A DNA stretch of 20,000 bases from an uncultured virus (IMG/VR IMGVR_UViG_3300027563_000599) (taxonomy: Duplodnaviria > Heunggongvirae > Uroviricota > Caudoviricetes), in IMG/VR virus record IMGVR_UViG_3300027563_000599; one strand, 5' to 3'. The position numbers were made by a program, and so were the translations under genes. Within the stretch, counting starts at the first letter, position 1. Every line of letters begins with the position of its first letter. A model generated the notes under the pieces. That model made no database searches, was not told where the DNA came from, and worked only from the letters and a program-made list of their open reading frames with translations. Shown here piece after piece: positions 6,416-17,454 of this stretch.

Positions 6416-7405
6416 GTGGCTACAAAACGCACAATATCAACCCTGGATCCTACCAAATCCATATCTGCACCCATTGCACCCAAAGTTAATTATCTCAACA
6501 ACAGAGACATTTTAAAAGAAATTCACGCCAGCAAGAACACCTATTGCTACTACAGAGATCCTGCTGTGGACAGCCAATATGACATTATCTTGGCCAGCCT
6601 GGAGAAAATCAATCAGCGAACCATTGCTGAGGCACGTAGGAATCGAGCAGACCGGCTCAAACGCGAAGGCACTATTGTGGATCCGGTAAAAATTCCCAAT
6701 ACCGATCTAGTGTTTAGAATCGCCTGCTGGGATCATATCCCAATGGCAGAGAAAAAGATTCCCAAGTCTGCGCAGAAGAAAAAACAAAAACTCGAAGATC
6801 TATTGGAGTTTGATGCTGAAGAAGAAATTGATGATTCCTTAGGTGAGTTACTGGATGATGTAATATTGAATCCTGTACGACAGCGTCTGAACTTTCCGCC
6901 GTTTGAACACTGGCGCCTGGACGAAAACAAAGAACGTGTTTGTGTAGGCCGCAGTCACTGGCTGGGTGATTTAGAAACTGGTGTGTTCAGCCGAGACCAT
7001 GGCAACATGACACGCAAGCTGGCACACATGTTCATGAAACTGTGTGAACGCTATGCCACACGATCAAACTGGAGAGGCTACACCTACAACGAAGAAATGC
7101 GCGGCCAGGCCTTGCTGCAACTCAGTCAAATTGGATTGCAATTCGACGAATCAAAATCACAAAATCCATTTGCCTACTACACCGCAGCCATCACCAACAG
7201 CTTTACTCGCATCTTAAATTTGGAAAAGAAAAGCCAAAACATCCGCGATGACATATTAGAAATCAACGGACTTAGCCCTAGTTGGACACGTCAAAATTCC
7301 GGGAAGGCCAGCATGGCAGCTCTGAGTGGACCAGTTACTGTTACCACTTACATTGTGGACAAGCCAGTGGAAGAAACCCATTTGGATTCCAACAACATTG
7401 TGTAA
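6416..7405 (+). CDS. gp55: T4 gp55-like late transcription sigma factor (329 aa)
   Basis: NYLNN N-terminal motif, then NWRGYTYNEEM and FDESKSQNPFAYYT...NSF-x-R-x-x-x-x-EKK. Classic position upstream of gp47/gp46. Confidence 0.88.
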   Translation: MATKRTISTLDPTKSISAPIAPKVNYLNNRDILKEIHASKNTYCYYRDPAVDSQYDIILASLEKINQRTIAEARRNRADRLKREGTIVDPVKIPNTDLVFRIACWDHIPMAEKKIPKSAQKKKQKLEDLLEFDAEEEIDDSLGELLDDVILNPVRQRLNFPPFEHWRLDENKERVCVGRSHWLGDLETGVFSRDHGNMTRKLAHMFMKLCERYATRSNWRGYTYNEEMRGQALLQLSQIGLQFDESKSQNPFAYYTAAITNSFTRILNLEKKSQNIRDDILEINGLSPSWTRQNSGKASMAALSGPVTVTTYIVDKPVEETHLDSNNIV

Positions 7406-7417
7406 TTTTACAAGCCC

Positions 7418-8302
7418 ATGACCATTGCTATTGTATATAACGGTGGAAGTTATGGTACCTATCTCGAATGGGTACTCACTACCTTAACTACTGATAATCC
7501 TATTATAGCCCCGTTTAGTTCAAACGGAAACAGCCATCAATTTGGGAGTGGTGCGGGCAACATACATTCTTCTAAATGGAAAGCAGTTGCCAACAAAGAA
7601 AAGTCCTGTTTGTTTGTTCGGCTGCATCCAAAAAATCACCAACACGAAGTACTAGATAATAATTTAAATCAAATTTTGGATGTTGCAGAAAAAATTATAT
7701 ATCTGTATCCAGGCCACGATTCGGTGTTGTTAAATGTAAACAACTTCTATTCAAAAATTTGGTTAGATTGGTGGAGTGCGCGATTATTAGATCCAGTATT
7801 TGCTGACAACTTGTACAGCAATTGGCCAGTTGAACGAGATACGCCTGTTGATCAAATACCGGTCTGGATAAAGAGAGAAATACTCAGTTTTAACTTGATG
7901 CCGGCCTGGGAGGACCAAGTGGAATGGTATCACCCAGACCGATGGAATCACCCACGATGTCAATTGGTATTGATTAACCAACTGTTGTATGATTTTGAAT
8001 TGACTCTGCTGAAGTTACAGGAATTTTGCAATTTGGAATTCAAAAAGGACATTGGTGATCTTGTTCCATTCCACCATACTATGTTGTCACTGCAACAGCA
8101 TCTTTCTCAAGATCAATTGTGTCACCGCATAGTTGACTGTACGCTGAACAATCAAATGTTTGAATGGACAGACATTCCTTTGCCCAGTCAAAGTTGGATA
8201 CAATGGCAATTGAGAAACCTGGGCTACGAAATTCGCTGTTATGAGCTTGACATGTTTCCGACAAATAGTGTACAATTAAAAAAACTACTTTATACTGTAT
8301 GA
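7418..8302 (+). CDS. Hypothetical protein, possible P-loop/sulfotransferase-like fold (paralog of 9309-10109)
   Basis: 294-aa ORF. N-terminal beta strand plus Gly-rich loop IAIVYNGGSYGTYL, and an FSSNGNSH motif. ATGA overlap with gp47. Confidence 0.5.
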   Translation: MTIAIVYNGGSYGTYLEWVLTTLTTDNPIIAPFSSNGNSHQFGSGAGNIHSSKWKAVANKEKSCLFVRLHPKNHQHEVLDNNLNQILDVAEKIIYLYPGHDSVLLNVNNFYSKIWLDWWSARLLDPVFADNLYSNWPVERDTPVDQIPVWIKREILSFNLMPAWEDQVEWYHPDRWNHPRCQLVLINQLLYDFELTLLKLQEFCNLEFKKDIGDLVPFHHTMLSLQQHLSQDQLCHRIVDCTLNNQMFEWTDIPLPSQSWIQWQLRNLGYEIRCYELDMFPTNSVQLKKLLYTV

Positions 8303-9312
8303 ATCTTTTTAAAAAAGCTGCGGTCTTTACTGACATACATTTTGGACTCAAGTCGAATTCGGTACTACACAACGAAGACTGTTTGGCTTTTGTGAAATGG
8401 GCCACAACCAAGGCTCGCGAAGAGGGTTGTGAAACCTGTTTGTTCCTGGGCGACTGGCACAATAACCGATCCAGTTTGAACATTGTCACACTGAACTACA
8501 GCCTACAAGCACTGGAGCACATGAATGCAAATTTTGACACTGTTTACTTTATCCCTGGCAACCACGATCTATATTATCGCGATAAACGTGATATACAAAG
8601 CGTGGAATGGGCTAAACATCTTCCGAATGTGGTCATATGTAACAATTGGTTTAATAGTGGCGACGTGGTTATCGCTCCTTGGCTCTGCGGAGATGATTAC
8701 AAGCGTATTCCCAAACTAACAGGCAAGTACATGTTTGGGCACTTTGAACTGCCCGGTTACTTGATGAACGCCATGGTAGAGATGCCGGACCACGGCGAAG
8801 TACGTAGAGAAGACTTCAACAACTTTGAACATGTGTTTACTGGACACTTTCACAAGCGGCAGACTAAAAAGAACATTACCTACATTGGCAATTGCTTTCC
8901 ACACAACTATGCCGACGCTGGCGATGATGAGCGTGGTATGATGATCTTAGAATGGGGCCAGGAACCAGCGTTTCATGCTTGGCCTGATCAACCGCGTTAT
9001 CGTGTGCTGGGGCTCAGCAACATTATTGATAATGCACCCACTTTACTTGCAAAAGACATGCATGTTCGTGTGCAGTTAGACATTGAGATTTCGTACGAAG
9101 AAGCCAACTTTATCAAAGAGACCTACATCAAAGAATACAGTCTTAGAGAAATGGCTCTGATTCCAAACAAGGCAGCCGGCGTAGATACAGACATGGCGCC
9201 AGGCGAAGTAAAGTTTGAGTCAGTGGATCAAATTGTCACAGACCAACTTACCAATATTGAGAGTGAGTTTTACGATAACAAACTATTGCTAAAGATTTAT
9301 CAGACTTTATGA
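8299..9312 (+). CDS. gp47: Recombination endonuclease subunit gp47 (Mre11/SbcD metallophosphoesterase)
   Basis: Motifs DIHFG, GDWH, GNHD, GHFE and GHFH. Confidence 0.93.
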   Translation: MNLFKKAAVFTDIHFGLKSNSVLHNEDCLAFVKWATTKAREEGCETCLFLGDWHNNRSSLNIVTLNYSLQALEHMNANFDTVYFIPGNHDLYYRDKRDIQSVEWAKHLPNVVICNNWFNSGDVVIAPWLCGDDYKRIPKLTGKYMFGHFELPGYLMNAMVEMPDHGEVRREDFNNFEHVFTGHFHKRQTKKNITYIGNCFPHNYADAGDDERGMMILEWGQEPAFHAWPDQPRYRVLGLSNIIDNAPTLLAKDMHVRVQLDIEISYEEANFIKETYIKEYSLREMALIPNKAAGVDTDMAPGEVKFESVDQIVTDQLTNIESEFYDNKLLLKIYQTL

Positions 9313-10109: not shown

Positions 10110-10849
10110 AATTATTAACAATAGCAGATGGCTACGGAGATAGTGTCGCAGTACCGTTGTGGTACACCAAGTACTGGAAATGGCCGGAAATTATTAATTT
10201 GATGACCAAGGGTGTAACTCTCAATAACTGTAGTAGGTACGGAGCCGGCAACGAGTTTATTGTTAATCAGTTAAAAAATAATATTGATTCTGCCGACGTG
10301 GTAATGATACAGTGGGCAAAACCTAATAGATTAGATCTAGTTCTTGCCCATCTTGATTCTAAATTTTGGAAAGATGTTATTGCAAGTGATCAAGTGTACC
10401 ACAACAATGTGGCAGATTGTGGCAACAATAAATTTTGGATTAGCAGTGGGTCTCAGACTGAGGCCATTCAAGAATACCACCAACGGTATATATCTGTCAA
10501 ACAGCACCAAATGCGATCGCAAATATTTGTAGAGTATGCTAAAATGTTACTTGAGCATCACAATATTGATTATCGATTCATGCTTGTGGATGATAGTGAG
10601 TATCTCGGAATTGATGCCAATTGGGTTTGTCACGAACCATTCAAGGGCATGAATAATTTTAGGTACAAAAGCAAATATCGTGAGTTAGAATTAGGTATCA
10701 AACAACCTACTCCGTTAGTGGCATTTGATTTTATCAAGCAGTATATTATGCCCAGCATCGACTTACAATGGCGCAGTAGTCGCGAAATTGATGCAGTTGA
10801 AAACATGCTGTATCGACATTACCAGGAAGCCGTAAAAAATAAACCATGA
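10106..10849 (+). CDS. SGNH/GDSL hydrolase-like protein (divergent)
   Basis: GDS near the N-terminus, WP, N-x-S-x-x-GAGN (block II-like) and DVVMIQW (block III-like). QP stands where the catalytic HP is expected. Confidence 0.5.
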   Translation: MKLLTIADGYGDSVAVPLWYTKYWKWPEIINLMTKGVTLNNCSRYGAGNEFIVNQLKNNIDSADVVMIQWAKPNRLDLVLAHLDSKFWKDVIASDQVYHNNVADCGNNKFWISSGSQTEAIQEYHQRYISVKQHQMRSQIFVEYAKMLLEHHNIDYRFMLVDDSEYLGIDANWVCHEPFKGMNNFRYKSKYRELELGIKQPTPLVAFDFIKQYIMPSIDLQWRSSREIDAVENMLYRHYQEAVKNKP

Positions 10850-12927
10850 TCCAAATTAAAAATTTAACTGTTAAGAACTTTATGAGTGTGGGCAATGCTA
10901 CACAAGGTATTGACTTTAACCGTAACGACCTTACATTGGTACTGGGCGAGAACTTAGACTTAGGTGGCGATGGCTCGCGCAACGGCACAGGCAAGACCAC
11001 AATCATCAATGCATTGAGTTATGCCCTGTATGGACAAGCATTAAGCAACATTCGCAAGGATAATCTTGTGAACAAAACCAACAGCAAAGGCATGTTGGTC
11101 AGTTTGGACTTTGTTGTAAACGGTCAAGAATACAAGATTGAGCGTGGGCGTAAACCCAACGTATTGCGTTTTTATGTCAACAACGAAGCTCAAGTGGCCA
11201 CAGACGAAGCACAAGGTGACAGTCGCGAAACACAGGATGCCATTGAACGTGTTATGAACATGAGTCACGACATGTTCAAACATGTGTTGGCCTTGAACAC
11301 CTACACTGAACCATTCTTGAGTTTGAAGGCCAACGACCAGCGTAATATCATTGAACAGTTGTTGGGCATTACCTTGCTTTCGGAACGTGCAGATGCTATC
11401 AAAGAACTCAATCGTCAAACCAAAGACAGTGTCAGTCAAGAAGAATTCCGTATCCGTGCAGAACAAGAAGCTAACCGACGCATTGAAGAACAGATCGAAA
11501 GTTTGAAACGCAGACAAGTGCTGTGGCAGAAGAAGTACGACAGTGATGTTGCGTACCTTGTGGCACAATATGATGATCTAGCAAAAATTGATATTGAGGT
11601 AGAACTGCTGGCTCACAAAGATCTAGCTGTGTGGACCGCAAGAAAACAACAGCAAGACGCATACATTGCTCTTGTGGGTCGACAGACTGCATGGAAGCAA
11701 AAACAAGACCGAGACATTAGAGAGTTAGAATCATCTTACAATGATCTCAGTCATATTGATATTCAGGCAGAATTACAGGCACACGTGGACTTGGCCGCAC
11801 ACACACAACAAGCCAAGGACATTGCTGAGCTTGAGAAGCTGATTGCTAGGTGTGTAGTTGACGAAGAAAAAGAACAAAAGACCATTGACAAACTTCGGAC
11901 CGAAATTGAAGAGTTAAAAAATCACAAGTGCTATGCCTGTGGGCAAGACTTTCACGACGCCAATCACGAAACAGTGTTGGCCACTAAAGAAAAAGCCCTA
12001 CAAGAAGCCGCACTGCAAGCACTGGCTACCAACGGTCAGTGGATGGAAAATACAGATGCATTACGAGCACTAGGTGCCTTGGGTGCTAAACCTACCACAC
12101 ACTACCGAACAGAAACAGAAGCCATTCGTCATTCAAGTGAACTGGAAAACATTCAGCACAAGATTGATGCCAAACGTGCAGAAACAGACCCATATGCCGA
12201 ACAGCTGGCAGAGCACACGCCTGTAGAAGCGGGCACACCGCCTGTTACACACTACGATACAGAAGCACAAGCTGTTGATCATCGCGGTCGTATGAACACC
12301 TTGCTGACACAGATTGCCACTAAGGGTGAAGAGAAAGATCCTTATACTGAACAAATTGCCGAAATGCAACACCAGGCATTGCAGACTGTGAGTTATGATG
12401 CACTCAACGAACTCACACGCTTGCAAGAGCATCAAGACTTCTTACTCAAACTGTTGACATCAAAAGATTCATTTGTTCGCAAGAAGATCATTGATCAGAA
12501 TTTGAGTTACCTAAATTCAAGACTCACACACTATTTGGATCGTATTGGATTACCACACACTGTAAAGTTCCAGAATGATTTAACTGTAAGCATTGAAGAA
12601 CTGGGTCGTGAGTTGGACTTTGACAACTTGAGTCGTGGCGAACGTAACCGATTGATCTTGAGCATGAGCTGGGCATTCCGCGATGTATGGGAAAGTTTAT
12701 ACAGCCCAATCAACCTGTTGTTTATTGACGAACTGATTGACAATGGACTAGACACGCAAGGCGTGGAGAATGCATTGGCCTTGCTGAAGAAAATGAGTCG
12801 TGAACGTCACAAGTCAATCTGGCTCGTGAGTCACAGAGATGAGCTTGCTGGACGTGTGGAGAACATTCTCAAAGTGATCAAAGAAAACGGCTTTACTAGT
12901 TACAACACGGATGTTGACCTTGCGTGA
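10846..12927 (+). CDS. gp46: Recombination ATPase gp46 (Rad50/SbcC)
   Basis: KNFMS, Walker A NGTGKT, zinc hook CYAC, signature LSRGE, Walker B LLFIDE and H-loop VSH. Confidence 0.95.
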   Translation: MIQIKNLTVKNFMSVGNATQGIDFNRNDLTLVLGENLDLGGDGSRNGTGKTTIINALSYALYGQALSNIRKDNLVNKTNSKGMLVSLDFVVNGQEYKIERGRKPNVLRFYVNNEAQVATDEAQGDSRETQDAIERVMNMSHDMFKHVLALNTYTEPFLSLKANDQRNIIEQLLGITLLSERADAIKELNRQTKDSVSQEEFRIRAEQEANRRIEEQIESLKRRQVLWQKKYDSDVAYLVAQYDDLAKIDIEVELLAHKDLAVWTARKQQQDAYIALVGRQTAWKQKQDRDIRELESSYNDLSHIDIQAELQAHVDLAAHTQQAKDIAELEKLIARCVVDEEKEQKTIDKLRTEIEELKNHKCYACGQDFHDANHETVLATKEKALQEAALQALATNGQWMENTDALRALGALGAKPTTHYRTETEAIRHSSELENIQHKIDAKRAETDPYAEQLAEHTPVEAGTPPVTHYDTEAQAVDHRGRMNTLLTQIATKGEEKDPYTEQIAEMQHQALQTVSYDALNELTRLQEHQDFLLKLLTSKDSFVRKKIIDQNLSYLNSRLTHYLDRIGLPHTVKFQNDLTVSIEELGRELDFDNLSRGERNRLILSMSWAFRDVWESLYSPINLLFIDELIDNGLDTQGVENALALLKKMSRERHKSIWLVSHRDELAGRVENILKVIKENGFTSYNTDVDLA

Positions 12928-13783
12928 TATAAAAGTTCTACACCTAGAGCCCACTGATGTGTGCCAAGCGGCCTGCGCTTTGTGTGCTCGCGAAACAGAT
13001 CAAAATTTTAGAAAAGATCTTCAACATCATCTTTCAATGAGTCAAATCATCAAGGTATTTGGCCAAGAAAAAATCCAACAACTGGACAAAATGTTCATGT
13101 GTGGAGTGTATGGTGATCCTGCTGCTGGCAAGTACACATTGGACATCTATAGAGAATTCCGAAAACTTAACCCCAACATTGTGTTGGGCATGAACTCCAA
13201 TGGCAGCATACAAAGCACAATTTGGTGGCATGAACTGGGCACAATGTTCAATCAATCCCAAGACTATGTGGTATTTTCAATTGATGGTCTCGAAAGTACC
13301 AATCATGTGTATCGTAAAAATGTCTCTTGGACCAAGCTCATGCAAAACGCACAAGCGTTTATTGCAGCCGGAGGTTCTGCACACTGGGACATGTTGGTTT
13401 ATCGACACAATCAACACCAAGTGGATGAATGTGAGCAGTTGGCACGAGACATGGGGTTTACATGGTTTAGAGCCAAGGTCAGTCGACGAGGATTTACAGA
13501 TAACCTAGAACAGCCCATTGGTTGGCAGCTGCCAAACGTGCAAGGCACAAAAATAAACTGTCATGCACTCAATGAACAAAGTACATATATCGATGCACAG
13601 GGTCGAGAAAGTCCGTGCTGTTGGTTGGGGTCAAGACAAAAAGATTTTGTAACAGACTTTGAAGAAGTCAAGAACTCCTGGACCAGCATTCAACCCAATA
13701 TTGTTTGCATGGATGCTTGTGGTACTACCGATATTGAGACTAGTTTTAGCAAGCAATGGCAACGAGCAGTAGAATTATGTTAG
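12911..13783 (+). CDS. Radical SAM protein with C-terminal twitch/SPASM-like region
   Basis: CQAACALC (CxxxCxxC), CGVYGDP, FSIDG, and a C...IDAQG-x-x-x-PCC...CxxxC C-terminus. Confidence 0.88.
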   Translation: MLTLRDIKVLHLEPTDVCQAACALCARETDQNFRKDLQHHLSMSQIIKVFGQEKIQQLDKMFMCGVYGDPAAGKYTLDIYREFRKLNPNIVLGMNSNGSIQSTIWWHELGTMFNQSQDYVVFSIDGLESTNHVYRKNVSWTKLMQNAQAFIAAGGSAHWDMLVYRHNQHQVDECEQLARDMGFTWFRAKVSRRGFTDNLEQPIGWQLPNVQGTKINCHALNEQSTYIDAQGRESPCCWLGSRQKDFVTDFEEVKNSWTSIQPNIVCMDACGTTDIETSFSKQWQRAVELC

Positions 13784-14787
13784 CAACTTGGCATTTTCAT
13801 ATTGAGATTTCCAGCAAGTGTACCTTGCGGTGCCCCCGGTGTTCTCGGCAGGAAGTGCCCAACGGCCTTGTCAACACAGAACTAGATTTGGAATTTTTCA
13901 AACGTAACTTTACTCCAGAGTTTGTACAAACACATATAGAGAAAATTACATTTTGTGGCGACGACGGCGATCCCATCTATGCACATGACTTGATCCCGGT
14001 TATAGAATACATCAAAAGCATCAAGCCGGTAGAGATTGTGATCGTGACCAATGGCTCACATAAGAAAGTTCAATGGTGGACACAGTTGGGCCAACTGTTA
14101 GACTCCAATGACAGTGTACATTTCAGCATCGACGGGTATGATAACGACAGTAATAACATATATCGCATCAACAGTGATTACGACAGTATCATTTTAGGAC
14201 TAAAAACATTGCGAGCCACAAGTGATTGCAAAATTATCTGGGCCGCGATTGCATTCAAGTTCAACGAAGAACACTTGGACACTATGAAAGCGTTTGCACA
14301 CACTGTGGGAGTTGATCGATTTCAATTGACCAAGAGCACCAAGTTTGGCAGTGTGTATCCATCCTACGGGGTCAGCGATCCACTACAACCCAGTGTAAAA
14401 TACATCAGCAGTACACATCGCTTTGAACGTGAGTTCACTGCCTTGACACCACGGGACAAAGTGGAATCAATTTCCACTACCAACATTAAATTATTCAATC
14501 AAATTAAAAGCAGCAACGGCATTACTCCGTTGTGCATGATAGGCAACAAAGGCTTGTACATTGATGCCCGCGGTAGGTTATTTCCCTGCTGTTGGGTAGC
14601 AAATAGATACAGCCACAATTCAGACTGGCAGCAACTGGCAAACAATTTTGATCTACATAAAAAAACTTTAACAACTGTGCTGGCAGACACATTTTGGTCT
14701 ACAGAATTTCAAACATTTAAATGGCAGGAATGCCAGACCAAGTGCAAGAGTTCAGTGGTAGATAAAAATTATGCAACTGCCTGGTGA
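13777..14787 (+). CDS. Radical SAM protein with C-terminal twitch/SPASM-like region
   Basis: CTLRCPRC, CGDDGDP, TNG, FSIDG, YIDARG-x-x-x-PCC and CQTKC. Start at 13777 preferred by comparison with the upstream paralog. Confidence 0.88.
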   Translation: MLATWHFHIEISSKCTLRCPRCSRQEVPNGLVNTELDLEFFKRNFTPEFVQTHIEKITFCGDDGDPIYAHDLIPVIEYIKSIKPVEIVIVTNGSHKKVQWWTQLGQLLDSNDSVHFSIDGYDNDSNNIYRINSDYDSIILGLKTLRATSDCKIIWAAIAFKFNEEHLDTMKAFAHTVGVDRFQLTKSTKFGSVYPSYGVSDPLQPSVKYISSTHRFEREFTALTPRDKVESISTTNIKLFNQIKSSNGITPLCMIGNKGLYIDARGRLFPCCWVANRYSHNSDWQQLANNFDLHKKTLTTVLADTFWSTEFQTFKWQECQTKCKSSVVDKNYATAW

Positions 14788-14791
14788 TCCG

Positions 14792-14798
14792 ATAACTA
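14792..14798 (+). promoter_or_regulatory. Possible variant late promoter ATAACTA
   Basis: One mismatch to ATAAATA, 6 nt before the GIY-YIG ATG, with no SD in between. The same heptamer occurs on the minus strand at 18536-18542. Confidence 0.4.
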
Positions 14799-14804
14799 TG
14801 TTAC

Positions 14805-15233
14805 ATGACATGGTTCTACAACAATCAACTGATAGAAACTCTACCCGACGATTGTGTGGGCTTTGTCTATTTGATTACAAATAATCTTTCTGGACGCAAG
14901 TACATAGGCAAAAAATTAGCAAAATTTAGTAAAACAACGCAACGCACTGTCAAACTTAAAAACGGCACAAAGAAGAAGAAAAAGATACGATCAAAGGTCG
15001 ACTCAGACTGGAGAGAGTACTATGGGTCAAGCCCAGAATTGACTTCGGACATCGAAAAACTAGGCACCGAAAACTTCACCAGAGAAATACTTTACTATTG
15101 CAAATCCAAAAGCGAATGCAGTTACATTGAGGCACGGGAACAATTTGCAAGACAAGTATTAGAATCACGAGATTATTACAACGGCCATATACAAGTGCGT
15201 GTACATGGCTCACACATTATAAACAAACTGTAA
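14805..15233 (+). CDS. Short GIY-YIG nuclease-family protein (142 aa)
   Basis: GFVYLITN...RKYIGKK, YYGSS, FTREIL, a conserved Glu (YIEA) and YYN. Contains a Lys-rich insert. No C-terminal DNA-binding domains. Confidence 0.8.
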   Translation: MTWFYNNQLIETLPDDCVGFVYLITNNLSGRKYIGKKLAKFSKTTQRTVKLKNGTKKKKKIRSKVDSDWREYYGSSPELTSDIEKLGTENFTREILYYCKSKSECSYIEAREQFARQVLESRDYYNGHIQVRVHGSHIINKL

Positions 15234-15239
15234 GGCAGC

Positions 15240-15580
15240 ATTAACGACACTGTGTTGGGTGACATGGCCCAACCCCATTGAGGATATGTGAGATACCATA
15301 TTCAGATTCTTGGGCGTCAAAGGCAATTGCTAACTTAAGGCAACAAATGGTTTGGGCTCCGTTGAAAAAGATACGACCCATGCTTATAGGACTTGGATCT
15401 ACATCGGGTTACTAGGGTTCCGTTGATATGTGAAGCTTGAGTAGGGGGTACCGGTCAACCGCCTCCGCGCAGGAAACTGCAATCTCATTATGATAGATGA
15501 CTGGGCTACTCAGATAATGCTAGGCTCATCGTTCACCGTGCTTACGGTGAATTATGACCAGTTAATCTAGATAATACTTA
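15240..15580 (+). ncRNA. Candidate large structured non-coding RNA (family not recognised)
   Basis: ORF-free stretch in an otherwise gap-free genome. It has many stems with G-U pairs, a GCAG-GAAA-CTGC GNRA hairpin (15469-15480), a long-range TGAGTAG/CTACTCA helix (15438-15444/15506-15512) and TTCACCGT/ACGGTGAA (15532-15551). Confidence 0.6.
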
Positions 15581-15600
15581 AAGAAGAAGACAAAGAAAAA

Positions 15601-15643
15601 ATTGACGAGCAGAGCGAAGTCAATAGAACTTCGCAGAAGTTCT
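15601..15643. terminator. Tandem hairpins between convergent transcription units; probable terminator for the minus-strand operon
   Basis: ATTGAC/GTCAAT (15601-15624) and AGAACTTC-GCA-GAAGTTCT (15625-15643). The A-run at 15596-15601 gives a U-tract on the minus strand. Confidence 0.55.
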
Positions 15644-16185
15644 TAAATGGTTACGCCAAGTTCTTGCAGTTTAGCAACAAAGAATGATTGGCCTTGAGAA
15701 ACAGATTGTTGCCATGAGGTATGAGCAGAGTGATCTGCTTGATCAGTGATGTACTTGAAACAACGAAATTCAATACGATTACGCAGACAGACTTTGGCAA
15801 TGGCATAGGCTTCCATGTCTACTAGATCTGCAGGAATGTCTAGCTCTGGGTTCATCACAAAGTCATCGCCGGTGCTGCAGGTGAGTCCTGCTGTGCCAGT
15901 GGTTAAGATAATATCATCTTCAAATGGTGTTTGGCCATTGCTGCATCCTAGCCCCAGGCATCGGATATCACGTTGTACAAAATGACTGCATTCATGTAGT
16001 CCGGGCCCAACTGTTATGCCACCCGCTGTGCCAAGATTGATCACACGATCGGGTTGATATCGTTCAATCACCTGCGCCGCAGTCATGGCAGCATTTACTT
16101 TGCCAACTCCGGTATAAAACACATTCATCATGTGCCGTAGACCCGGAGCTTCAGCCTGCAAGGCAATTAAAACTATGGTTTTCAT
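15643..16185 (-). CDS. mtnN: 5'-methylthioadenosine/S-adenosylhomocysteine nucleosidase family protein
   Basis: TGVGKVNAA, INLGTAGG, STGDDFV, VDMEAYAIAKVC and KYITDQAD motifs of the PNP/UDP phosphorylase-MtnN family. Confidence 0.85.
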   Translation of the reverse strand: MKTIVLIALQAEAPGLRHMMNVFYTGVGKVNAAMTAAQVIERYQPDRVINLGTAGGITVGPGLHECSHFVQRDIRCLGLGCSNGQTPFEDDIILTTGTAGLTCSTGDDFVMNPELDIPADLVDMEAYAIAKVCLRNRIEFRCFKYITDQADHSAHTSWQQSVSQGQSFFVAKLQELGVTI

Positions 16186-16517
16186 TCAAAAGTGTCGGGC
16201 CAGTCACGGAACAGGGCATGTTGAATATCACCACTGACAAACTGATTGAAGCTCTTGTGTTTGACTTCCAGTTCGCCTTCCAACGGTGCTACACGTTTAA
16301 ATGCTGAGTCCATTTGACCCATATCTTTAAATTCCATAAGTATCATCCATTCTGGCATATCTGCAATTGAACGAAACCCCATCTTGCATCTAGTGATGCG
16401 ATAGTTTTCCATCTTGCCCTCAGATACCAAATGATCAAAAAAACTCCGCATCCCTGTGACCCAGTCAATATCAGAAATGTCACCTTCTTTGTTTGCCCAA
16501 ATTGTATAAATGTCCAT
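16182..16517 (-). CDS. Small conserved hypothetical protein (DUF6614-like, possible dimeric alpha-beta barrel)
   Basis: 111-aa ORF, coupled by an ATGA overlap. The YRITRCKMGF and EWMILMEF...ALFRDWPD patterns were recalled from a bacterial DUF. Confidence 0.45.
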   Translation of the reverse strand: MDIYTIWANKEGDISDIDWVTGMRSFFDHLVSEGKMENYRITRCKMGFRSIADMPEWMILMEFKDMGQMDSAFKRVAPLEGELEVKHKSFNQFVSGDIQHALFRDWPDTFE

Positions 16518-16519
16518 AA

Positions 16520-16954
16520 TTACTCCAGTGGTCCTAGTATTTCAAAGCCATCCATGTCAGACTTGTATAGATGTGCCTGTTCAAGATACAAGTATCTAAA
16601 TCCGCGATCTTTGTAAATTGCACACTCTGCTTGTAGTGTTTCGATACCCAATCTCATTTTGGGTCTATTATAATTCCATGCAAACTGATCACACAAGGCA
16701 TTGTGATCGTCGTAGCGCCGTATCAGTGAAAATGCCACCAAACGATCCACATCGTAGTAGCCGATCACATCGGTCATTGGGTCTGTGTATCTGCTGTCAA
16801 ATATCGGCATCACCGATGCAAAGTGCTTGTATTTGCAGTAGTCTCGATAGATCAGATTCAGCTCAGCAATGTTGGGTGTGCGCAGATACTCCCACTTGAC
16901 ATTGATTTTGTAATTGGTCTTAGCTAAATCAATTCTAGCAAACTGGTAGCTCAT
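16520..16954 (-). CDS. GNAT-fold protein resembling the C-terminal domain of Arg/Leu-tRNA-protein transferases (ATE/Bpt)
   Basis: YYDVDRLVAFS and AWNY...RLGIETLQAEC...GFRYLYL...YK resemble the ATE_C pattern (YDP...SLG...L-x-EI...G-x-x-Y-x-YLG...YK). Confidence 0.5.
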   Translation of the reverse strand: MSYQFARIDLAKTNYKINVKWEYLRTPNIAELNLIYRDYCKYKHFASVMPIFDSRYTDPMTDVIGYYDVDRLVAFSLIRRYDDHNALCDQFAWNYNRPKMRLGIETLQAECAIYKDRGFRYLYLEQAHLYKSDMDGFEILGPLE

Positions 16955-17454
16955 GTTCTGGGATCCTGTCTGTGCTGAAACAGGCCGGTTAGATATTCTT
17001 CAGGCCAGTCATGATAAAATCCTCGGCTGGCCATGAGTCGAGCCTTGGTGTTTAGATCACTGAGACTCTGCACCAGAGCCAAGGCATAAGTGCCTTGATT
17101 CATGCATACTCCGTTGACCATTTCCACATCTGCAGGATGGTCTTCCAAGGCCAACATGTCTCTAGGCAGCAGAACTTCTTGGTTTGCCAGTTCAATGCTA
17201 CCAGCCAGCTGTTCATGCGTCCATTCTTGAGGATCATACACATAGATGACAACTTCTTTATCGCCCATGCCCTGTCGGCCACGGTGTTTAAGATCATAAT
17301 AAGGATCTGCACCAAGATACACTGCATAACTGTTCTTTATTCGTGCTGACCGTGCGTAGGGACAAGGCGAAAAGCCCCCCAGGGCTGGATGCGGAACTTC
17401 TAGGAAGTTTGCAATCCACAGTTCTATATCTTTTTTAACTTGTTCGATATCCAT
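16951..17454 (-). CDS. DUF1415-like hypothetical protein
   Basis: W...PCPYAR near the N-terminus and a central LEDHP, resembling the CPFA and FHP motifs of DUF1415. Confidence 0.45.
   Translation of the reverse strand: MDIEQVKKDIELWIANFLEVPHPALGGFSPCPYARSARIKNSYAVYLGADPYYDLKHRGRQGMGDKEVVIYVYDPQEWTHEQLAGSIELANQEVLLPRDMLALEDHPADVEMVNGVCMNQGTYALALVQSLSDLNTKARLMASRGFYHDWPEEYLTGLFQHRQDPRT

Follow-up and report, generated by a model that had tools for sequence, protein, structure and literature searches.

GOLLD and ROOL are large, ornate RNAs that are associated with phages. To our knowledge, only a small number of large phage RNAs have an intricate fold and no known job, and new biology has come from every one of them to date. 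Ornate phage-associated RNAs of large size and no known function are also presented in one report (10.1101/2024.12.08.627333). The motif Polynucleobacter-1 was described from 16 sequences, which were obtained from one Polynucleobacter chromosome and from fresh-water and estuary metagenomes, and it was classed there as a likely RNA with a likely role in cis regulation (Weinberg et al. 2010, PMC2864571). Our literature search found this motif named only in Weinberg et al. 2010. In the present study, we analyzed a stretch of 20,000 nucleotides (nt) from an uncultured virus (IMG/VR record IMGVR_UViG_3300027563_000599), hereafter called the window. It almost certainly holds a real structured non-coding RNA (ncRNA) of approximately 330 nt at 15246-15577 on the + strand, with the architecture summarized in Table 1. 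Similar to GOLLD and ROOL, this RNA has a complex, multi-domain, pseudoknotted and phage-borne fold and no known function. However, it is smaller, no Rfam match to GOLLD, ROOL, or HEARO was found in the window, and its loop palindromes are not maintained by covariation.

The RNA is located in a gap of 409 nt (15234-15642) between two convergent units. An earlier note on this DNA had described a non-coding gap that starts at the stop codon of a GIY-YIG nuclease gene, and this description was borne out. A search of IMG/VR with the GIY-YIG protein gave 587 relatives, from which 80 loci were kept (the GIY-anchored set). The gap was aligned by blastn over at least 250 nt, with 76-98% identity, in 30 of these 80 loci, and compensatory changes were visible by eye in the alignment of relatives. 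An invariant 16-mer retrieved at least 120 further viral stretches without using the protein. The 141 sequences (103 distinct) were reduced to 93 representatives that were less than 95% identical. L195 was left out because it carries the 16-mer but is only 28% alike, probably a chance match; the resulting alignment, A1, contains 92 sequences, including the window's own row. RNAalifold predicted 55 pairs on A1, 23 of which had double changes, and a mutual-information scan of A1 contributed long-range pairs. The combined structure model (75 pairs in 18 helices) was tested against 500 shuffles and slid controls. Paired cells amounted to 90.8% on A1, against 81.5 ± 0.2 in the shuffled alignments, 49 of the 75 pairs were changed on both sides (34.3 ± 2.1 when shuffled), and the covariation score was 0.270, compared with 0.115 for shuffled and 0.036-0.066 for slid controls. 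Not one of the 500 shuffles reached the model in paired cells or in any other of the five measures. Conservation and covariation were thus both present downstream of the nuclease homologs, where the earlier note had proposed to look for them. G-U pairs were fixed at 15446/15464 in 91 of the 92 sequences and at 15331/15339 in 90. Since abundant fixed G-U pairs fit the + strand only, the RNA is read on this strand, as the earlier note had also argued from its G-U pairs.

Single-sequence folding was no better than that of shuffles. The folding energy of the gap was -108 kcal/mol on the + strand, against -105.7 ± 6.4 for shuffled sequences (z -0.36; 36 of 100 shuffles folded equally well), and z was -0.26 on the - strand. 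Therefore, the statement that the gap folds throughout is no evidence by itself; its structure stands by covariation, while the energy is at chance. No open reading frame (ORF) in the gap exceeded 46 amino acids (aa). A conserved small ORF was rejected, with the two longest frames open in just 2 and 4 of 92 relatives, and so was a coding reading in general, as the variable columns showed no codon periodicity (56/47/53). Transfer RNA and transfer-messenger RNA were also rejected (ARAGORN found 0 genes in the window), as was an internal sigma-70 promoter (1 site against 2.7 expected by chance). A group I intron was rejected because no intron family matched at E values up to 10 and no + strand coding sequence follows. 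The whole window was unmatched in Rfam at gathering scores, and at E values up to 10, the region 15150-15720 gave four noise matches, all on the - strand.

Comparative support was obtained for most stems drawn in the earlier note, namely, the hairpins at 15254-73, 15282-15303, 15327-43, 15353-80, and 15532-51, the GGGGG/CCTCC stem, and the GNRA hairpin (15469-80), which showed strong covariation. Two others were replaced. Instead of a TGAGTAG/CTACTCA stem, covariation pairs 15438-41 with 15484-87 (T-A in 46 sequences, A-T in 42), and the TCAAC at 15455-59, which had been placed in a CGG-TCAA-CCG hairpin, pairs with GTTGA at 15422-26. The latter helix and 15444-48/15462-66 form an H-type pseudoknot in the conserved core, with TCAAC inside the loop of the second helix. 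The pairing 15422-26/15455-59 (helix 11) is constant within type 1, the form of the RNA found in the window, and changes in step across types: GTTGA/TCAAC in 84 sequences, GTTGT/ACAAC in 18, and GTCAT/ATGAC in 4, with the rarer variants GTCGT/ACGAC in 2, GTCAG/CTGAC in 1, and a one-mismatch form in 2. These variants were read by eye because the MAFFT alignment across types had a register shift. In the long-range pairing PK1, 6 of 7 pairs showed changes on both sides; for example, 15399-15496 is T-A in 50 sequences, C-G in 33, and T-G in 5. In the 5′ domain, the loop of the hairpin at 15282-15303 is the conserved UGAGAUAC, that of 15327-43 is the near-invariant UAACUUAAG, and that of 15353-80 is GAAAAAGAUA. 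The palindromic loops CUUAAG, GGUACC, and AUCUAGAU were considered as dimerization sites and rejected; in our own reading of the alignments, variants break the palindromes without compensation. The 3′ module (approximately 15496-15577) consists, in order, of ATGAC, a linker, the repeat R1, a spacer, the hairpin at 15532-51, a second ATGAC, a second linker, and the repeat R2. Another hairpin takes the place of 15532-15551 in types 2 and 3. A helix 15502-07/15523-28, which would enclose R1, is tentative: 50% and 40% of cells were paired in A1, and support from an anchored test was weak (3.96 against 3.75 ± 0.07).

The RNA occurs in three types that differ in the 5′ domain. An nhmmer profile of A1 matched 65 of the 80 GIY-anchored loci, 32 over the full length, 2 cut by a contig end, and 31 in the 3′ half only; 15 were unmatched. 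Of the GIY-anchored loci, 72 extended downstream for 600 nt or more, and all of these but L068 (71) carried an RNA of some type. The 5′ half of type 2 is RF01718, the Rfam family of Polynucleobacter-1, which was matched in 27 loci (7 of the first 16 sources scanned, the other nine not being type-2 loci, and 20 of a further 20) with scores of 59.5-122 bits, the threshold being 37. Most of these matches begin at a distance of 10-53 nt from the GIY-YIG stop. The type-1 profile matched the 3′ half of type-2 loci with E values of 4e-8 to 7e-16 (5.6e-6 in L044). Types 1 and 2 share the genomic slot just after the GIY-YIG stop, the core (CCGTTG .. GGTACCGGNCAACCGCC), and the twin-repeat module. Type 3 (L002, L027, L028, L032, L034, L036, L048, and L049) has a different 5′ part and retains the twin repeats, each copy of which contains ACATGAA. 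Accordingly, Polynucleobacter-1 resembles the window RNA in its slot, downstream core and twin-repeat module, and freshwater habitat; however, the 5′ domain of the window RNA has another helix layout, and RF01718 (gathering score 37 bits) was unmatched in the window, also at E values up to 10, and in the nearest record, G001. Of the type-2 RNA, the RF01718 model (141 positions) spans no more than the 5′ third, and the core and 3′ module are in no Rfam family. Since sister forms share the core and 3′ module while their 5′ domain is RF01718, we regard the window RNA as a new form of a larger phage RNA of modular build. The claim of an unrecognized family therefore holds for the window itself, which is unmatched in Rfam; its novelty is reduced by the sister form that contains a described motif. 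The supplements of PMC10690425 contain thousands of candidate phage RNAs, among which pieces of the window RNA may or may not be included.

A pattern of the shared core gave 6 matches in 185,579 species genomes, 4 in contigs of metagenome-assembled genomes (MAGs) and 2 by chance in GC-rich coding DNA. Of the MAG matches, L203, L204, and L205 carry phage genes, and L202 (1.7 kb) carries the 3′ half of the RNA only. RNA-bearing phage contigs of 148 and 183 kb were binned into bacterial MAGs of unrelated phyla (L202-L205, L208). L203, L204, and L208 are in one MAG labelled Haliscomenobacter, and one bin contains both type-1 and type-2 RNAs. The presence of these phage contigs within bacterial MAGs looks like binning contamination.

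Four freshwater metatranscriptome runs contained 31-56% of the sampled words of 14700-16000. Contigs of these RNA libraries cover the GIY-YIG gene and run on into the RNA in two of the four runs (X2, 14886-15440; X4, 14886-15312), and the RNA of a relative appears as a loose end in such contigs. These contigs are compatible with transcription of the RNA and with its co-transcription with the nuclease gene; stretches that they leave uncovered do not speak against expression. The co-transcription proposed in the earlier note thus agrees with the two runs that bridge the stop codon; contigs of the other two break off shortly upstream of the first helix, at 15243 and 15241. These ends are a weak hint of a ribozyme, in which the invariant core would self-cleave or process the transcript and free the RNA from the operon. 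The near-invariant core with its pseudoknot would suit such an activity. However, the ends are equally explained by breaks at strain variation, and no ribozyme family of Rfam was matched even at E values up to 10. We consider self-cleavage highly improbable.

The 3′ border of the RNA bears on another explanation. A hairpin with covarying stems (TTGAT/ATCAA, ATGTCT/AGACAT, and GTTGTT/AACAAC) at 15602-15623 is likely the terminator of the convergent PNP_UDP_1 unit, and a second one at 15626-15642 (GATTAGC/GCTAATC, GATCTC/GAGATC, and GACTTGC/GCAAGTC, then TCTTT) is likely the terminator of the + strand unit, judging from the stems and the T-rich tails. A simple terminator scan called neither 15602-15623 nor 15626-15642. 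The loop of the former hairpin, GAGC..AGCGAA, is conserved, and TCGCTTCGCTC, just after R2 in some relatives, is complementary to it; because of this complementarity, the hairpin may exceed a terminator role. The RNA lies directly before these interlocked convergent terminators, and in the loci read, it is terminal in the + strand unit whichever gene precedes it. It may thus be a cis-acting element of the 3′ untranslated region that shields the mRNA of the operon against 3′ exonucleases or keeps the convergent units insulated from each other and has no function in trans; the marking of Polynucleobacter-1 as probably cis-regulatory points in the same direction (Weinberg et al. 2010, PMC2864571). 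However, the RNA is approximately 330 nt long, has two pairings of the pseudoknot type, and contains unpaired stretches of 16-23 nt that are invariant, which far exceeds the needs of a 3′ stabilizer, and there is no + strand gene downstream to regulate. We regard a purely cis-acting role as unlikely.

The two repeats of the 3′ module show the most unusual feature of the RNA. Each contains a 7-mer, which was taken after ACTC in R1 and after ATCT in R2, anchors that presuppose no identity between the two. Of 112 distinct RNAs, 110 had identical 7-mers in R1 and R2, and in the other two the 7-mers matched at 6 of 7 positions. The 7-mer itself varies between phages at four positions (G 57/A 54; G 55/A 57; T 97/A 12/G 2; and one T-to-C), and 10 distinct 7-mers were observed. 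The mutual information of matched R1/R2 columns reached 1.07 of an entropy of 1.07 and 1.00 of 1.07. The repeats are identical, not complementary, and are separated by 57 nt in one RNA. Their flanks remain distinct (ACTC against ATCT, and a final G against mostly A), and since these flanks stay different, tract-wise gene conversion appears to be unlikely. Pairing of the L1 and L2 linkers was rejected (3.38 against 3.36 with shuffled partners; z 0.4). The reverse complement of each RNA's own 7-mer gave 44 matches in its locus, compared with 32.6 for each of the other variants, and the matches did not peak at any position. In the window, the repeat motif was counted 15 times at one mismatch, against 7.2 ± 2.8. 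No convincing co-variation of the 7-mer was found with the GIY-YIG protein, the DUF6614 protein, or two neighboring proteins. None of these checks accounted for the identity of the 7-mers.

The boxB elements of nutL and nutR in lambdoid phages are twin RNA sites that are alike within a phage and different between phages. The window repeats are similar in that both sites are identical within a genome and vary among relatives; they differ in that both lie in one RNA and that no co-varying neighbor protein was found. We speculate that the identity of R1 and R2 reflects a partner that reads sequence strictly and does so through two equal sites. An equally speculative alternative is that the two motifs pair in parallel via like-with-like base pairs; we know of no parallel like-with-like paired element reported in natural RNA.

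The gene that ends just before the RNA encodes a GIY-YIG protein of 142 aa that matched PF19835 (SegE_GIY-YIG) with 9.1e-34 over the whole model. No domain is present beyond the catalytic one. In an AlphaFold2 model (pLDDT 95.9), the basic insert (residues 40-66; 27 residues) forms a long beta-hairpin, and the best solved fold found by Foldseek was the catalytic domain of I-TevI (probability 0.99, E 0.05). The earlier description of a catalytic domain with a basic insert only was accordingly confirmed. A PDB sequence search with the nuclease gave 0 matches at E values up to 1. At least 8000 close proteins belong to the family (2280 clusters at 50% identity); most members have 130-190 aa, and the stand-alone form of approximately 140 aa is the norm. 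The families EndoVII (gp49), RuvC, RusA, Hjc, and PDDEXK_15 were unmatched in G003 and G004, two complete relatives of approximately 346 kb. For this reason, a junction-resolving or debranching role is a reasonable inference, and the GIY-YIG protein may be the only junction resolvase of the phage. However, this assignment is weakened by G005, which has both an EndoVII and a GIY-YIG gene.

T4 Seg-type GIY-YIG genes adjoin conserved targets. By analogy, free-standing nucleases might have settled by the RNA gene as a result of cleaving its conserved sequence in nuclease-free phages, the function of the RNA being unrelated. Exactly the same slot is used by two nuclease genes that are unrelated to each other, and their stop codons precede the invariant motif by 164-180 nt; the region is also a hot spot of gene insertion. 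However, the window protein shares with the T4 Seg endonucleases and I-TevI the catalytic domain and lacks their C-terminal DNA-binding domain, carrying the basic beta-hairpin insert instead. The gene is also near-universal rather than sporadic as a homing gene would be. It was present in 71 of 75 loci, syntenic and 73-98% identical across the 80 loci kept, and each of 5 genome records had one copy at the RNA site (G005 has a second, weak family match of 40 bits elsewhere). Homing is thus an improbable explanation.

The earlier note had proposed a ribonucleoprotein in which the RNA partners the adjacent minimal nuclease and supplies recognition or a scaffold, and the twin 7-mers would be its recognition elements. 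The linkage was assessed in 80 loci anchored on the RNA, 75 of which were informative and 5 too short. A small nuclease gene on the same strand lies upstream of the RNA in all 75. GIY-YIG is directly upstream in 55, and in 3, its exact slot is taken by an unrelated PDDEXK_15 nuclease (Pfam 1e-24 to 1e-26; PHROG 244), so that two nuclease folds alternate at one position next to a constant RNA; a PDDEXK_15 gene is farther upstream in one more locus, L108. No record searched contained both nucleases, and those with PDDEXK are fragments. The PDDEXK_15 protein (approximately 169 aa; L116:2684-3190, L132:2683-3192, and L147:2681-3193, all on the - strand) is annotated by PHROG as a "RusA-like Holliday junction resolvase". 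Such a partnership would also fit the library contigs that bridge the nuclease gene and RNA and a nuclease that has a basic beta-hairpin in place of a DNA-binding module.

However, the RNA also occurs apart from the GIY-YIG gene, which the earlier note had named as an observation against its proposal. One or two other + strand enzyme genes intervene between GIY-YIG and the RNA in 16 of the 75 loci, and in the loci read, the last + strand ORF, whichever gene it is, ends 152-195 nt before the invariant motif. In a distant branch of the GIY-YIG family, the RNA and the T4-like neighbors were found in 0 of 39 loci, and stand-alone forms are in any case the family norm. No column of the GIY-YIG protein follows the 7-mer variants (maximum mutual information 0.43 against 1.0 for R1-R2). 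No hypervariable guide-like end, which the earlier note had suggested to look for at either side of the RNA, was found; variability lies in the stems and loops of hairpins and in the two linkers. Just 10 7-mers are not guide-like in diversity, and the 7-mer complement was not enriched nearby. Furthermore, our literature search found no RNA-guided GIY-YIG system. We conclude that a ribonucleoprotein or guide with the neighboring nuclease is not supported and is quite unlikely. An even bolder version, in which the RNA is a nucleic-acid-recognition subunit, GIY-YIG and PD-(D/E)XK effectors are swapped on it, and the 7-mers read a target by Watson-Crick pairing, is very unlikely in our judgment. 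The locus resembles IscB/TnpB with their omega-RNA (HEARO) in that a small nuclease gene and a long structured RNA lie side by side on one strand. In contrast, the nuclease there is of the RuvC/HNH type and here GIY-YIG or PD-(D/E)XK, and the window locus has no HEARO match, no transposon ends, no hypervariable guide, and an RNA separable from the nuclease gene.

We consider the best explanation as a whole, on which our judgment stands at an even balance, to be a gene for a modular structured ncRNA of approximately 330 nt in giant T4-like freshwater phages. The RNA is always the last element of a rightward unit that runs from gp46 through variable enzymes and a small nuclease to the RNA. Transcribed from left to right, it probably forms the 3′ end of the transcript of this operon, and it ends at a likely hairpin terminator interlocking with that of the convergent unit. 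Its modules are an exchangeable 5′ domain in three forms (type 1 in the window, Polynucleobacter-1 in type 2), a near-invariant H-type pseudoknot core, and a 3′ module in which a hairpin is flanked by two copies of a 12-nt motif. Such a stable folded RNA would dock a partner via the invariant core and twin motifs and may act as a scaffold, decoy, or regulator in trans rather than as a guide of the neighboring nuclease, which would be an ordinary structure-specific DNA nuclease of a recombination gene block. We favor this trans-acting, nuclease-independent role, for an RNA set free from the 3′ end of the operon, from comparative data, tentatively and with slightly less than even confidence. Several points weigh against it. 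The upstream nuclease, GIY-YIG in 71 and PDDEXK_15 in 4 of the informative loci, is adjacent in 58, and since this link is tighter than that of the RNA to a downstream cassette (41 of 61 loci), a functional tie to "a nuclease" may well exist. An action in trans also leaves the identity of R1 and R2 unaccounted for. The expression data are Logan contigs rather than reads, which give no RNA levels and come from libraries that may contain DNA, and their cover of 15440-15555 is thin.

Judging from its gene content, the window is derived from a T4-like phage. The nearest record, G001, is a fragment of 63.6 kb rated 18% complete. Since the relatives include G003, a complete genome of 346,856 bp with terminal repeats, the genome that hosts the RNA is taken to be that of a giant (approximately 347 kb) T4-like phage. 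The RNA gave a single BLAST match in G003, and the GIY-YIG gene is likewise present once. Metagenome runs containing the stretch are labelled freshwater or lake water. In the GenBank phage collection, the gap was unmatched, and the surrounding 4.6 kb gave one weak match. The interval from gp46 to the RNA (12911-14787 in the window; equivalents in L003-L160) is a hot spot of variable + strand enzyme genes. These comprise 0-2 radical-SAM genes, ORFs with a FAGCS.TAG motif, which we presume to resemble SGNH/GDSL hydrolases, and others of 258-356 aa; some lie between the nuclease gene and the RNA. On the other side, DUF6614 and two small ORFs form the downstream cassette (16182-17454, - strand), for which a distance of up to approximately 2.5 kb from the RNA was counted as linked.

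Table 1. Features of the RNA and its surroundings in the window (positions in nt).
Feature	Position	Strand	Remarks
5′ domain, type 1	15246-15410	+	Helices 1-8 72-100% paired, most pairs with compensatory changes
Closing helices of 5′ domain	15246-48/15316-18 and 15274-76/15312-14	+	Enclose hairpins 15254-73 and 15282-15303
Hairpins of 5′ domain	15254-73, 15282-15303, 15327-43, 15353-80, 15391-15409	+	
Long-range pairing PK1	Loop 15397-15403 with 15491-15498	+	Helices 9 and 10, 96% and 89% paired
Conserved core	15411-15487	+	Starts with invariant ACTAGGGTTCCGTTGA; invariant columns of A1, helices 11-15
Repeat R1	15508-15519	+	ACTC, 7-mer AGATAAT, G
Hairpin between repeats	15532-15551	+	Helix 18, 98.8% paired; G-C to C-G in 11 sequences
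Repeat R2	15565-15576	+	ATCT, same 7-mer, A
Hairpin, likely terminator	15602-15623	-	Followed by T run on - strand (15593-15601, A on +); stem covaries
Hairpin, likely terminator	15626-15642	+	Followed by T-rich tail; abuts stop codon of - strand gene
gp55-type late sigma factor gene	6416-7405	+	
gp47 (SbcD-like) gene	8299-9312	+	
gp46 (SbcC-like) gene	10846-12927	+	
Two radical-SAM genes	12911-14787	+	
SegE-type GIY-YIG gene	14805-15233	+	142 aa; PF19835
PNP_UDP_1 gene	15643-16185	-	Convergent with + strand unit
DUF6614 gene	16182-16517	-	
Two small ORFs, then baseplate genes	Beyond DUF6614	-	

The present results place the orphan motif Polynucleobacter-1 as one interchangeable domain of a modular RNA gene of approximately 330-350 nt, located at a fixed site in giant T4-like lake phages. 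They also extend the known structure by a pseudoknot core and a twin-repeat module outside the Rfam model. The window RNA adds a rare case to the large folded phage RNAs without a known job, and R1 and R2 present a clean puzzle, in which two segments must stay identical rather than complementary. The alternation of two unrelated minimal nucleases upstream keeps a partnership of nuclease and RNA live as a minority option. If the RNA does serve as the recognition subunit for these exchangeable effectors, giant phages would possess an RNA-directed nuclease of a new kind.

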